Shown: in pieces, positions 34,686 through 40,238 of the stretch
Layout: every line of letters begins with the position of its first letter
How positions within the stretch are numbered: the first letter of the stretch is position 1
DNA from: Patescibacteria group bacterium
Lineage (GTDB): Bacteria; Patescibacteriota; UBA1384; XYA2-FULL-43-10; 1-14-0-10-43-13
Assembly: GCA_041671645.1 (NCBI GenBank)
Contig: JBAZBD010000001.1
Span: 21,561-85,560 of the forward strand
Direction of reading: 5' to 3'
DNA length: 64,000 nt
Program-made: the position numbers and the translations under genes
Notes under the pieces: generated by a model
Databases searched by the model: none
What the model was told of the DNA's origin: nothing
The model's input: only the letters and a program-made list of their open reading frames with translations

Positions 34686-35147
34686 CTATTTGTTCTGCCA
34701 GTCGTTGTGGAAATAAAATGATGGAATCTTCTCACGAGATTCCTCTTTTTTTGGCTTGTTTTTTTCGAGCGATATCCAAATTAGAAAATTGAATAATCCG
34801 ACGGGCAGAACGATCAGAATCGCAAAATAGAGATAGTTCACAATTAACTTCGTCGAGAGATAGATATCATCACTAGTCAGCCAAAGATAGGGCGCAGGAA
34901 TCTTCTTGAAGAAGAGTAGGAGTGCCATCGTCGTAATGATCAGTAAATTAACGATGTAACGTAATTTGACCTGGGAAAGAAACAGCAGGACGCCAGACAA
35001 TAGCGCTGCAAAACGAAAACGTCCGCCCCATTCTGGATGGTAGAAGGCTAACGTGAACATGATGATTATCAAAAGAGCAAATACCGATCTGATCGGAGAC
35101 TCGCTACTTTCGTTTTTTTCTTGTGGGGGCTGCTGGGGGTGGGTCAT
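34686..35147 (-). CDS. Small polytopic membrane protein, unknown function
   Basis: 153 aa with 4 predicted TM segments. The start overlaps the upstream gene by 44 nt, and an alternative internal start cannot be excluded. Confidence 0.4.
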   Translation of the reverse strand: MTHPQQPPQEKNESSESPIRSVFALLIIIMFTLAFYHPEWGGRFRFAALLSGVLLFLSQVKLRYIVNLLIITTMALLLFFKKIPAPYLWLTSDDIYLSTKLIVNYLYFAILIVLPVGLFNFLIWISLEKNKPKKEESREKIPSFYFHNDWQNK

Positions 35148-36597
35148 TTTTCTTCAGAATTAATACTTTATCATTATAAACTATAGAGTAATTCTTGAAA
35201 TCTGTGGGCGACGAGGTAGCCTCGGGCGGAAAGTAGATATAGTCATATTTGACTTCGTTGCCTTTCGCTAGATAGTCATCTAGGGCTGGCTTTTCAAAGA
35301 GCATATTATCATACACTAGATTGTAGCGATCACCTACCGCCTTGATCCATATGCCATAGCGCCAATAAGCCGCAATCGTTTTATCTTCGGGAATGTTGTC
35401 CCTTACCCAGGTGATGGCCTTTTGGTCCGATCCAGTCATAATTGCCTGGGCTCCCGGGTCATTCTTCTGCCAATTCAATAATACTGTGTTGGCGCTGTAG
35501 CTAGGAGCGATCGCAAGAAATGCGAGTATCGCGATTAATGTACAACGAGCAACCGCTGGCAAAATCACCGTTTTGGCTAGCGAATAGATCCCGACCGCCG
35601 CGAATACGGCCAGACCCATTTCGAAATACGGGTAGAAGCGAAATGAGAGGAAATATATCCCGAAAACATAGTTTAGCGACATGAAAAGCCCTGCGATTAC
35701 AAGGGCAAATCCAACCTTCACTTCATGCTTGACCCAGTTTTTCAACGAAGCGATAAGTCCAATTATAGCCAAGAATGGGACAAGGATGCGTTGTGGTTGG
35801 TCAGAAGTAAGGATCAGCCAAAACGGGCGCTGACCGTATCCCTTCGGATCGCCCGAGACGAAAAGTAAAAACTTTTCAATCAAGTCATTTTTGAAGAAAT
35901 AAGTAAGCAGTCCGGCCAAGGCATATATTGCCAATAAAATCAAAAGAAATTTCCTGCTCTCTTTGTTCTCTGACTCGACGAATGTAAGAACACAAATAGT
36001 TATGAAAAATAATACATATATGATAAACGAAAGCGGATGGGAAAAAATTAAAATTATTGAAAAAATAATTGTAAAGACGATATTCTTTTTTACAAAGAAA
36101 TAGAGCAGGAGTGCAAACGCAAACCAGCCCCACGTCTCTCCGAGAAGGCCCATCCTGATACCGTCGTTGGTCCAGCGACTTGTCACGAAGATCAGGGCTG
36201 ACAAGAAACCGACGATCCAACTCTTCGAGATTGATTTGGCGAGGAGCGCAACCCCGAGGCCGGCAAGAAAAAAGTAGAAGGAAATAGTTACAGTGAAGAG
36301 CCGAGGCAATTCTACCCCGTGGAACACAATGGAAAGCCATTTGAAAATTATCAGCGGGATCGGGTAGAACATCCCACATATATCGCTGAAGCTCATGGTC
36401 TTGATTCGAGTAATATGAGTCGCTGGATCATCGCCTATCGGAAAAGCAGTGACACGCGCGTATTGGAATGCAAAGTAATAGAGCAGATAAACAAAAAATG
36501 CCCCGACCAAACTTCTCCAAAGAAGGGGGTATTTTTTGAAAAAATTAGAGACTTTTACAATAGCCATTTCCTGATAATCATACCAGAAAATGGCCAT
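35104..36597 (-). CDS. Polytopic membrane protein, GT-C-like glycosyltransferase candidate
   Basis: 497 aa with more than 10 TM segments, an acidic first-loop motif (PIGDDPATH) and a soluble C-terminal domain. This architecture resembles GT-C enzymes; there is no direct sequence match I can name. Confidence 0.4.
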   Translation of the reverse strand: MAIFWYDYQEMAIVKVSNFFKKYPLLWRSLVGAFFVYLLYYFAFQYARVTAFPIGDDPATHITRIKTMSFSDICGMFYPIPLIIFKWLSIVFHGVELPRLFTVTISFYFFLAGLGVALLAKSISKSWIVGFLSALIFVTSRWTNDGIRMGLLGETWGWFAFALLLYFFVKKNIVFTIIFSIILIFSHPLSFIIYVLFFITICVLTFVESENKESRKFLLILLAIYALAGLLTYFFKNDLIEKFLLFVSGDPKGYGQRPFWLILTSDQPQRILVPFLAIIGLIASLKNWVKHEVKVGFALVIAGLFMSLNYVFGIYFLSFRFYPYFEMGLAVFAAVGIYSLAKTVILPAVARCTLIAILAFLAIAPSYSANTVLLNWQKNDPGAQAIMTGSDQKAITWVRDNIPEDKTIAAYWRYGIWIKAVGDRYNLVYDNMLFEKPALDDYLAKGNEVKYDYIYFPPEATSSPTDFKNYSIVYNDKVLILKKNDPPPAAPTRKKRK

Positions 36598-36628
36598 CCA
36601 GCGGAAGTGGACGAGACGAAATCAAAGC

Positions 36629-37939
36629 CTAGTATCTGTAGTTGTCTGGCTTGAATGGACCAGATTTTTTGAGACCGAGATATTTGGCTTGTTCTGTGGT
36701 GAGAGTGGTAAGTTTGACATTGAGATGGTCTAGATGAAGACGGGCAACCTTCTCGTCGAGCTCTTTGGACAAAGTGTAAACTTTGCCTTTTTCGTATTTG
36801 TCAGTCTCGGTGAATAGTGCGATCTGGGCCAGACATTGATTGGTGAACGAAGCACTCATGACGAAACTTGGATGGCCATGGGCATTCCCCAGATTCACCA
36901 GTCGGCCACGAGATAGCAGGATGATGTCATTGCCATTCTTCAAGGTGAATTTATCAACTTGAGGTTGGATATTTTCTTCTTTGGCGTTTGTCTCGAGCCA
37001 TCTGACATTGATCTCCGAATCAAAATGCCCGATGTTGCAGACAATCGTTCCCGATTTCATTTTGGCCAAATGCTCGCCTCGGATCACGTCGCAACAGCCG
37101 GTAGTGGTGACAAATATGTCTCCAATCTTAGCCGCTGTCTCCATCGTCACAACTTCGAATCCTTCCATCGCCGCCTGGAGAGCATTGATTGGATCGATTT
37201 CGGTGACCAATACACGAGCGCCAAAGCCACGCATGCTCTGAGTGCAACCCTTTCCAACATCGCCATAACCAGCAATGACGACAGTCTTGCCGGCGATCAT
37301 AATATCAGTCGCTCTCTTGATACCATCAGCCAAACTTTCACGACAGCCATATTTGTTGTCGAATTTTGATTTTGTTACTGAGTCGTTGACATTAATAGCT
37401 CTGAATTTGAGAGTTCCCTTCTCGGCCATCTGATAAAGTCGGTGAACACCGGTCGTCGTCTCTTCTGAGACGCCCAAGATTTCGTCGACCAATTCTGGGT
37501 GCTTTTCAGCGACCAAGACAGTCAGGTCGCCGCCATCATCCAATATCATGTTTGGGCCTTTGCCACCTTTGAACTTGAGAGACTCTTCTACACACCACCA
37601 GTATTCTTCCTCGGTCTCACCTTTCCAGGCGAAAACTGGGATGCCAGCCTTGGCAATCGCGGCGGCGGCATGGTCCTGGGTCGAGAAAATATTGCAGGAG
37701 CTCCAACGAACCTCTGCGCCCAATTCTACCAGCGTCTCGATCAAAACGGCTGTCTGTATCGTCATATGGAGGCAACCAGCAATCCTGGCGCCCTTGAGCG
37801 GCTTGGCAGGGCCATATTCACGACGAGTCGACATGAGCCCTGGCATTTCCTGCTCGGCCAATTTTATTTCCTTGCGACCCCAGTCAGCAAGAGAAATATC
37901 GGCGACCTTAAAATTCTCTGATTTGTTTGAAGACGTCAT
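36629..37939 (-). CDS. ahcY: Adenosylhomocysteinase (SAH hydrolase)
   Basis: [28 protein letters not shown]-terminus, an NAD-binding motif (GYGDVGKG) and a C-terminal [10 protein letters not shown]. The start overlaps the pfkB stop by 32 nt. Confidence 0.95.
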
Positions 37940-38807
37940 AACGTTCCTTTATATCTTTATATTGAATATTCTTGGTGTAGTTGACACTGAAATCCTCAGC
38001 ACAACATGAAGCCACGGCCGAACCGTAGACAACAGCTTTTTTGATATTATCAAAAGTTGTGTCGTTTGTCTTGGCCAGATAACCGATCATGCCCCCAGCG
38101 AATGAATCACCGCAACCGGTCGGATCTTTCAGTTCTTCGAGCGGATAGCCAGGGGCCGAGAAATAGCCTTTGAGAGAGAAGAGAAGCGCACCATGTTCCC
38201 CTTTCTTAATAACGGCGTATTCAGGCCCTAATTCCAACAATTTCTTCCCTGCTTTAATCAAATTTGGCTCATTGAATAATTGTCTCGCTTCGCCCTCATT
38301 TAGCACGATTAGATTGACCTTTTTGATTACTTCTAGAAGTTCTGCCTTCTTGCTGCCTATCCAGTAGTCCATAGTATCGGCTACGACGAAAGGTTTGCCC
38401 CGCATCTGTTTCAAGATGCTCAATTGAACTGTCGGATCAATATTGGCTAGGAACAAGAAGCTTGCATCTTTGTATGAATCTGGCAGTTCTGGGTCAAAAG
38501 AAGCGAGAGAATTGAGCTTCGTCTCTTTGGTCTGTGCCTCGTTCATATCGAACTCGTAGAAACCAGACCAAGCGAAAGTTTCGCCTTTTTTCTCTACTCC
38601 AGTCAGATCAATCTTCCGACTCTCCAAAAACTTAGAATATTGGTCGGGGAAATCTAGACCGGCAATGCTAACTAAGGCAGAATCTGTAAAATAAGAAGCC
38701 GCTGTGGCCGCAAAAGTTCCGCTCCCGCCAAGCGTACGCTCGACTTTACCAAAAGGAGCTTCAATGTTATCTAGCCCTATTGTCCCAGCAATTATTAAGT
38801 TAGCCAT
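37908..38807 (-). CDS. PfkB/ribokinase-family kinase (adenosine/nucleoside kinase candidate by context)
   Basis: The [12 protein letters not shown] anion-hole/catalytic motif and an N-terminal GG dipeptide (TLGGSG) are PfkB-family hallmarks. The substrate is not deducible from sequence by eye. Confidence 0.7.
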
Positions 38808-40065: not shown

Positions 40066-40092
40066 AAAAAAGGCTTGCCACCGGCAAGACTT
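40066..40092 (-). terminator. Riboswitch expression-platform terminator
   Basis: Minus-strand RNA GUCUUGCC-GGU-GGCAAGCC followed by U6. The CUUGCC arm can alternatively pair with GGCAAG at the 3' end of the aptamer, giving an antiterminator. Confidence 0.7.
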
Positions 40093-40097
40093 TACAT

Positions 40098-40193
40098 TTT
40101 TATCTTGCCCGAAGGCTTGGATTTAGCACTTTACCTTGCGGCAAGCTGCTGGATGGTCGACGGGCCAATTCCCTACCATCACTCTTGATAATT
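40098..40193 (-). promoter_or_regulatory. SAM-I (S-box) riboswitch aptamer
   Basis: The minus strand reads UUAUCAAGAGUGAUGGUAGGGAAUUGGCCCGUCGACCAUCCAGCAGCUUGCCGCAAGGUAAAGUGCUAAAUCCAAGCCUUCGGGCAAGAUAA. It matches the S-box core blocks (UUAUCAAGAG, AGGGA, GGCCC, GA..CC, CAGCA, GUGCUAA.UCC, AGAUAA) and the P1 pairing UUAUC/GAUAA. Confidence 0.85.
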
Positions 40194-40209
40194 ATTTGAT
40201 TGTAAATCC

Positions 40210-40238
40210 ACAATACCAATGCTTTGGTCGGCTGTCAA
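40210..40238 (-). promoter_or_regulatory. Candidate promoter of riboswitch-metK operon (TTGACA-17-TATTGT)
   Basis: Minus-strand TTGACA (40238-40233), a 17-nt spacer and TATTGT (40215-40210), about 20 nt upstream of the aptamer. Confidence 0.45.

Follow-up and report, generated by a model that had tools for sequence, protein, structure and literature searches.

The DNA analysed in this study is a stretch of 64,000 nucleotides from contig JBAZBD010000001.1 of the metagenome-assembled genome (MAG) of an ultrasmall Patescibacteria (candidate phyla radiation, CPR) bacterium; this 64-kb stretch, referred to here as the window, is the portion of the genome that was examined. On its minus strand a SAM-I (S-box) riboswitch aptamer lies in front of the genes metK, pfkB and ahcY, and the arrangement very probably represents a canonical SAM-I termination OFF switch, responsive to S-adenosylmethionine (SAM), for a three-gene operon encoding an "open SAM cycle". 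The features concerned are listed in Table 1, and related loci are cited by our own numbers (L002 and so on).

Table 1. Positions of the riboswitch, the operon genes and the neighbouring features in the window.
Feature	Positions	Strand	Basis or remark
SAM-I (S-box) aptamer	40097-40194	minus	RF00162, model positions 1-108, 49.9 bits, E 1.9e-08
Promoter TTGACA-17-TATTGT, extended -10 with TG	40210-40238	minus	10/12 consensus positions
Antiterminator	40083-40109	minus	GGCAAGAU (40109-40102, includes the P1 3' strand) pairs with GUCUUGCC (40090-40083, terminator 5' arm)
Intrinsic terminator, CUUGCC-GGU-GGCAAG stem-loop, A-U-extended, then CC + U6	40066-40093	minus	sequence and fold
Structured 95-nt leader	39971-40065	minus	direct repeat and Shine-Dalgarno (SD) hairpin
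metK, methionine adenosyltransferase, 387 aa	38807-39970	minus	TIGR01034 545 bits (cutoff 309), three S-AdoMet_synt domains; MFA6963145.1
pfkB, PfkB-family kinase, 299 aa, probably an adenosine/nucleoside kinase	37908-38807	minus	PF00294; MFA6963144.1
ahcY, adenosylhomocysteinase, 436 aa	36629-37939	minus	TIGR00936 675 bits (cutoff 498)
17-bp hairpin, no U-tract	36560-36597	minus	longest inverted repeat in 34.5-40.4 kb
GT-C-fold membrane glycosyltransferase, open reading frame (ORF) of 497 aa (NCBI 487 aa from 36567)	35104-36597	minus	strain-variable, probably outside the conserved operon
Small membrane protein, ORF of 153 aa (NCBI 124 aa)	34686-35147	minus	no Pfam family

Riboswitch, Promoter and Expression Platform

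A cmscan search of the whole window against Rfam 15 returned RF00162 alone, both at the gathering thresholds and at E<=0.5, with no match at E<=0.5 to the S-adenosylhomocysteine (SAH) riboswitch RF01057, to RF01724 or to a second SAM element. The score of 49.9 bits lies above the RF00162 gathering score of 44.4 bits, which bears out the S-box aptamer that had been proposed in an earlier reading of this DNA from its letters alone (the sequence-only reading). The aptamer core agrees with the Rfam consensus at J1/2 (AAGAG), at AGGGA...GGCCC in P2, at GUGCUAAAUCC and in the P1 strands UAUC/GAUA. The core of the four-helix junction is also present, with the U-A and A-U pairs of P1 and a J3/4 (GUGCUAA-UCC) identical to the consensus.

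The promoter that the sequence-only reading had placed upstream, at 40238-40210, ranks best among 13 promoter-like sites found by a consensus scan of 33-41 kb, and the general pattern TTGACN-N16-18-TANNNT is not enriched in the window (6 found vs 5.7 expected). A TTGACx-17-TAxxxT box also lies within 60 nt 5' of the aptamer in four related loci (L083, L086, L097 and L140), and a TTGACA box is present upstream of the aptamer in L085.

Downstream of the aptamer, the expression platform is a classical S-box competition between terminator and antiterminator, and both of the structures claimed previously were recovered by folding. The terminator is made up of CUUGCC (40088-40083), a GGU loop, GGCAAG (40079-40074), CC and U6 (40071-40066). 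The unconstrained minimum free energy fold of the leader contains the antiterminator, at -41.5 kcal/mol, while enforcing P1 restores the terminator at -37.9 kcal/mol, a cost of 3.6 kcal/mol. The two are mutually exclusive, with the terminator rivalling a structure that uses the P1 3' strand.

Between the terminator and metK lies an unusually structured leader, in which the direct repeat GAATTTGGAAT-CTC-GAATTTGGAAT (40041-40065, minus strand, between the terminator and the SD hairpin) is combined with an inverted repeat (40011-40024/40054-40067). The hairpin previously noticed beside the SD sequence is found as UCCGCC (39998-39993) paired with GGCGGA (39988-39983), followed by the SD sequence GGAG at 39980-39977 and the ATG at 39970. 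This long leader is peculiar to the window genome and absent in relatives; in L083, for instance, the start codon comes just 40 nt after the aptamer.

Operon Genes and Proposed Mechanism

The proteins encoded in this part of the window correspond to MFA6963141-45 at NCBI, and the operon also occurs in sample SRR18595301. MetK and AhcY are identified by curated family models, at scores well above the cutoffs. A longer metK ORF of 410 aa, beginning at 40039, was rejected: alignment to the family models begins at residue 4 of the 387-aa version, and it is this version that has an SD sequence and that NCBI annotates. The gene coordinates confirm the overlaps that had been described, the metK stop codon and the pfkB ATG sharing one base (TAATG) and ahcY overlapping the end of pfkB by 32 nt. 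All three genes are on one strand, and their overlaps leave no room for terminators between them. Internal promoters, which the sequence-only reading had raised as a possibility, did not appear in the consensus scan, a weak piece of negative evidence: from the riboswitch promoter to the end of ahcY, the scan detected no promoter-like site on the minus strand. On that strand it gave two such sites at the riboswitch and one within the GT-C gene (36095-36068), and no others.

Under the mechanism proposed here, transcription would start about 7 nt past the -10 box at 40210. With SAM bound, P1 (UUAUC/GAUAA) would stay closed, the CUUGCC/GGCAAG hairpin with its U6 tail would form, and transcription would terminate near 40066. 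When SAM is absent, GGCAAGAU at the aptamer's 3' edge would instead pair with GUCUUGCC, blocking the terminator and allowing RNA polymerase to enter metK, pfkB and ahcY. Translation would then be coupled between metK and pfkB through the TAATG, and between pfkB and ahcY through the 32-nt overlap. MetK would supply SAM, methyltransferases would convert SAM to SAH, and AhcY would split SAH into homocysteine and adenosine. The PfkB kinase would phosphorylate adenosine to adenosine monophosphate (AMP), drawing the unfavourable AhcY equilibrium onward and salvaging the purine.

Low SAM would thereby raise the capacity to clear SAH along with SAM synthesis. In a linear pathway, MetK, the methyltransferases, AhcY and the kinase would all carry the same steady-state flux. 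Co-expression in proportion, driven by one SAM-sensing leader, would therefore be sensible, and we infer that a single shared leader would suit a genome with few regulators.

Conservation Among Related Loci

The best 80 loci of a synteny scan of GTDB came from Bacteroidota, Geobacter, Nitrospirota and others. With the exception of DPANN and two Chloroflexota loci, these have pfkB without metK or ahcY nearby, and no CPR genome was listed among them. CPR loci were gathered by exact-protein look-up, together with 80 metagenome loci, and the window proteins were mapped onto them. The order metK-pfkB-ahcY was found in L082, L083, L085, L086, L088, L094, L097, L103 and L110, and metK-pfkB in L140 and L154, where the contigs end inside pfkB. 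The closest of these, L082, has operon proteins 94-97% identical to those of the window.

An aptamer of the SAM clan precedes metK in nine of the 11 distinct CPR loci that have a complete metK with upstream sequence, the window being counted among them. The SAM-I scores range from 56.1 bits in L083 through the 49.9 bits of the window to 46.0 (L110), 44.0 (L097), 42.8 (L140), 33.7 (L154), 30.7 (L085) and 27.6 bits (L086). In L088 a SAM-I/IV aptamer (RF01725, positions 4388-4507, 45.5 bits against a gathering score of 41.1) occupies the place that SAM-I has in the window, a case of one aptamer subtype being exchanged for another ahead of the same operon.

In all eight relatives with an aptamer, the aptamer is succeeded by a stem-loop with a U-rich tail, weakest in L154, and most relatives repeat the design of the window, with GGCAAGAUAA at the 3' edge of the aptamer and UCUUGCC-loop-GGCAAG-Un downstream. 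The proposal that one SAM-OFF switch is placed to control metK, the PfkB kinase and ahcY as a unit is supported, and the arrangement recurs in CPR relatives together with aptamer and terminator.

Compensatory changes were read off the sequences and Rfam alignments of eight further CPR leaders by inspection. In P2 the pairings GAUGG/CCAUC, GACGG/CCGUC, GGCGG with its complement, and GCAGCC/GGCUGC occur; in P2b GGG/CCC or GAG/CUC; and in the terminator stem CUUGCC/GGCAAG, CACGCC/GGCGUG and CCUCACC/GGUGAGG, with changes in P4 as well. Leader alignments made with MAFFT misplace the 3' strands of P4 and P1 because P2, P3 and P4 carry insertions.

Among the individual leaders, that of L094 appears short and G+C-rich, and that of L103 has GAATTTCGGATTT-type repeats. 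In L085 (Berkelbacteria, 5829-7978), an ORF of 272 aa (5976-6794) with a faint LAGLIDADG match lies between the SAM-I aptamer and terminator and metK; it is possibly a homing endonuclease inserted into the regulated leader.

The PfkB Kinase and Its Association With ahcY

The kinase has a PfkB fold, with PF00294 matched at 85 bits, and retains the GG, NxxE and DPTGxGD motifs, the last with the catalytic Asp. Residues G27, G28, N170, E173, D228, P229, T230, G231, G233 and D234 are invariant in 27 homologues, the nearest of which carry the names Patescibacteria or Berkelbacteria. Among solved structures the closest relative is PDB 3kd6, homologous over the full length at 293 bits and sharing all of the PfkB catalytic motifs; we take this entry to be a deposited nucleoside kinase with bound AMP. 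Next among the named relatives come two nucleoside kinases, MJ0406 (2c49) and NF041164, each falling far short of its family cutoff, and 3ubo, a structure named as an adenosine kinase, matches at no better than E 3e-4.

Of the 57 close loci with room for it, 40 have an ahcY gene downstream of pfkB and on the same strand. The exact 32-nt overlap is found in 11 related loci, including some (L085, L099 and L101) with an AhcY of only about 45% identity to that of the window. The overlap is shared by two lineages of AhcY, one about 80% identical to the protein of the window (L083, L086 and L087) and the other about 45% (L085, L099, L101 and L103); the junction has persisted through the divergence or replacement of AhcY. 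DPANN archaeal loci (L002-L004) likewise link pfkB and ahcY.

Removal of adenosine by adenosine kinase sustains transmethylation (PMC11975374). As AhcY yields adenosine, and adenosine removal drives transmethylation, an adenosine kinase is the most economical assignment, and the conserved translational coupling to AhcY makes it probable that the PfkB protein is one. The earlier suggestion of a probable adenosine kinase is borne out in the PfkB fold and motifs, with no curated adenosine- or nucleoside-kinase model matched above its cutoff.

It is somewhat unlikely that the protein acts instead on another nucleoside or on a sugar, such as ribose or a glycan precursor, with its position being merely historical. 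Such a substrate would fit with the general PfkB model being the only Pfam match, with NCBIfam matches far below their cutoffs, with the labels of ribokinase or carbohydrate kinase given by the sources, with the position of the operon in a glycan island, and with the separation of the clade from ahcY in Bacteroidota, Geobacter and Nitrospirota. The overlap kept at about 45% AhcY identity, the linkage extending to DPANN archaea and the nucleoside kinases among the nearest named relatives all argue for the adenosine kinase.

Many CPR and DPANN loci have the pfkB-ahcY pair, often with the identical 32-nt overlap, but no metK. At 13 such loci no riboswitch was found at Rfam gathering thresholds, and in L087 none at E<=0.1; the switch therefore travels with metK. 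In some CPR lineages a pfkB-ahcY module has been joined behind a riboswitch and metK. In two DPANN loci (L002, 6897-7322; L117, 5897-6331) a gene for a protein of 141-144 aa lies on the opposite strand between pfkB and ahcY. The protein has an Lrp/AsnC-type look, judged by eye alone, and could be an archaeal substitute for the riboswitch.

Several observations weigh against a SAM-I switch governing a three-gene SAM-cycle operon. The bulged nucleotide in P3 is G in the window and in L086, compared to A in the Rfam consensus, and several of the relatives' aptamers fall below the Rfam gathering threshold, their low scores being due to long insertions in P2, P3 or P4. L094 (1524-1948) and L103 (1029-1453) have the operon, and upstream of their metK there is no SAM-clan match and no core motif. 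The kinase reaches no curated adenosine- or nucleoside-kinase model, the best being NF041164 at 58.8 bits compared to a cutoff of 450. Among the loci listed from Bacteroidota, Geobacter and Nitrospirota, the kinase clade is linked to ahcY within 6 kb in only five of 74. Finally, pfkB-ahcY is independent elsewhere, and a promoter inside metK may exist.

This last point leads to the alternative that the riboswitch effectively controls metK alone, with pfkB-ahcY being an older, self-sufficient module with its own promoter in the 3' part of metK. The module does occur without metK or riboswitch, as described above, and the spacing of about 280-480 nt between metK and pfkB in L094, L097 and L088 would leave room for a promoter. 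In the window, however, the stop codon of metK and the start of pfkB share a base, no minus-strand promoter-like site was found inside metK at the scan threshold, and the junction is also tight in L082 (overlap), L083 (7 nt) and L110 (about 25 nt), making control of metK alone quite unlikely. The switch is best read as serving all three genes, which would be co-transcribed.

Proposed Control of ahcY by SAM and Comparison With Known Systems

Control of ahcY by SAH-sensing ON elements is the rule in beta- and gamma-proteobacteria (PMC4239095), in line with what the sequence-only reading had stated. That reading had regarded a SAM-OFF switch as counter-intuitive for ahcY, a view at odds with two precedents. 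The SAM-Chlorobi motif is a presumed SAM-responsive leader before metK-ahcY operons in Chlorobi (PMC2864571, PMC4239095), and a Chloroflexota MAG (L073, 3529-9547) has a SAM-I aptamer of 77.4 bits before a tight same-strand gene cluster. The latter consists of an IF-2B-family isomerase (MtnA- or R15P-isomerase-like), a 355-aa protein without assigned function, pfkB, an archaeal-type MetK (PF01941) and ahcY, and is an independent case of SAM-I ahead of pfkB and ahcY. With SAM-OFF control of ahcY predicted in CPR, in one Chloroflexota MAG and, through another motif, in Chlorobi, this is a pattern and not an anomaly.

The core of the system is a textbook, ordinary SAM-I OFF switch on metK and two further genes of the SAM cycle. 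It resembles SAM-I riboswitches of metK and methionine or cysteine genes in Firmicutes and other phyla in its full-length RF00162 match, its core, its terminator and antiterminator, and in having metK first. It differs from the typical SAM-I element in its Patescibacteria host, in the bulged P3 nucleotide, and in an operon that holds SAH hydrolase and a PfkB kinase rather than genes for methionine biosynthesis or transport.

SAM-Chlorobi (RF01724) is similar in being a presumed SAM leader before an operon of SAM synthetase and SAH hydrolase, but its RNA architecture differs from that of the window and no PfkB kinase is described in its operon. Preliminary in-line probing of SAM-Chlorobi revealed no binding of SAM or SAH (PMC2864571). 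The only Chlorobiaceae locus sampled (L075) has a 3kd6-type kinase gene with no ahcY within 6 kb. The SAH riboswitch RF01057, which precedes ahcY or metF in beta- and gamma-proteobacteria (PMC4239095), shares with the window the control of ahcY and the regulation of the SAM cycle; it is a SAH-sensing ON switch, whereas ahcY in the window lies behind a predicted SAM-sensing OFF switch. The SAM-I/IV element (RF01725) takes the same position in L088, 5' of metK-pfkB-ahcY, and belongs to the same clan (CL00012), but differs in its peripheral architecture.

The Downstream Boundary and the Surface-Glycan Island

Beyond ahcY, the sequence-only reading had extended the operon into two membrane genes and had suggested that the switch might reach glycan-related functions. 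The operon probably does not continue into these genes as a designed unit. In the DNA alignment with L082, identity of about 90% runs as far as the ahcY stop codon; directly beyond it the two sequences are unrelated, L082 having a convergent GT2 gene there. The neighbouring large membrane gene is convergent in L083 and L084 (DUF6541 in both) and in L086 (an unassigned 512-aa protein), and in L088 a DUF6541 gene on the same strand is 345 nt off. A tblastn search found no homologue of the 497-aa protein in 88 related loci.

The gap after ahcY measures 31 nt to the first ATG of the GT-C ORF and 61 nt to the start annotated by NCBI. It had been described as 31 nt without a hairpin; the length is correct and these 31 nt hold just a weak hairpin, but a 17-bp hairpin begins at the very ATG of the next ORF. 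This hairpin starts at the first ATG (36597) and contains the NCBI start (36567), thereby covering both candidates. Its 91-nt context folds at -29.7 kcal/mol (z -3.6), and with three G-U pairs among the 17 the pairing is complete only in RNA of the minus strand. The hairpin could lend stability to the ahcY transcript at its 3' end or block initiation at the following gene, and either role weakens a model in which all five genes are expressed as one unit.

In such a model, one SAM-OFF switch would govern a single transcript of metK, pfkB, ahcY, the GT-C gene and the small membrane gene, coupling SAM status to surface-glycan assembly. All five genes are on the same strand, and between ahcY and the GT-C gene there is neither a canonical terminator of hairpin and U-tract nor a predicted promoter, so that read-through could occur. 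In several CPR relatives glycan-synthesis genes border the operon at one end or at both. The end of the L082 similarity at the ahcY stop, the convergent or distant neighbours, the lack of homologues in related loci and the hidden start codons all count against it, as does a 41%-identical homologue of the GT-C protein (P0122) that neighbours nucleotide-sugar genes, and a five-gene transcript of this kind is unlikely. SAM control of the glycan genes, the most speculative part of the earlier proposal, is not supported by the comparison of loci. Most likely, the GT-C gene pair is a strain-specific neighbour from a hypervariable glycan island, with at most accidental read-through from the three-gene operon.

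The description of the 497-aa protein as GT-C-like is right at the level of the fold. The family is small, with 66 representatives at E<=0.001 among 1.84 billion, and only one member matches DUF6541; the protein itself has no Pfam or NCBIfam match even at E<=10. An AlphaFold model built on 47 family members reached a predicted local distance difference test (pLDDT) score of 93, and structurally it comes closest to STT3B, AglB and PglB, its C-terminal domain being AglB-like.

In common with these enzymes, the protein has an invariant Asp in the first external loop (D57, motif FPIGxD, in 47/47 family sequences), and H187 and R320 are also invariant in the family. It is, however, about 200-300 residues shorter, without a Pfam STT3 match and without a family-wide WWDYG. 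Membership of the STT3 family was rejected on the absence of a conserved WWDYG, the YWRYG of the window (411-415) varying in the family and only W417 being conserved. The protein is thus a compact GT-C enzyme and not a demonstrated oligosaccharyltransferase. The gene of the homologue P0122 begins 184 nt from the end of its contig, and it too has an overlapping small gene behind it, coding for 120 aa.

The operon is embedded in a large surface-glycan island, which occupies 23801-34684 and 40307-54008 of the window. Its genes include three tandem Wzy_C genes, a flippase, several GT2 and GT4 genes, DUF2304, a DegT aminotransferase, and NeuB with a cytidylyltransferase, the last two constituting a nonulosonic-acid pathway. 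The content of the island differs from that of L082. A good intrinsic terminator for the convergent GT4 gene (33587-34684, plus strand) lies at 34723-34743, inside the last codons of the opposite-strand 153-aa ORF.

Significance

The type of switch described here is well known, and the recurrence of SAM-OFF control of ahcY leaves the understanding of SAM riboswitches unchanged. What the window offers is a predicted native riboswitch, with promoter and terminator, from Patescibacteria, a little-studied group. A review of the group states that an inducible expression system has still to be developed and that riboswitches are promising candidates (PMC11665869). The literature that was searched held no description of native CPR riboswitches, and nothing relevant on CPR adenosylhomocysteinase, 3KD6 or CPR oligosaccharyltransferases. 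The conserved junction also provides a functional lead for a widespread and unnamed PfkB clade, as an adenosine kinase coupled to SAH hydrolase.

A bolder view, which we consider very unlikely in its entirety, would take the 3kd6-like PfkB clade as the missing adenosine kinase of CPR, and of riboswitch-less DPANN, welded translationally to AhcY. With MetK added, the pair would amount to a minimal, non-regenerating SAM cycle, a SAM-clan riboswitch being its sole regulator, and in this strain read-through would also tie SAM status to a compact, oligosaccharyltransferase-like GT-C enzyme of a variable surface-glycan island. If this were true, the riboswitch would be among the very few metabolite sensors in such reduced genomes.

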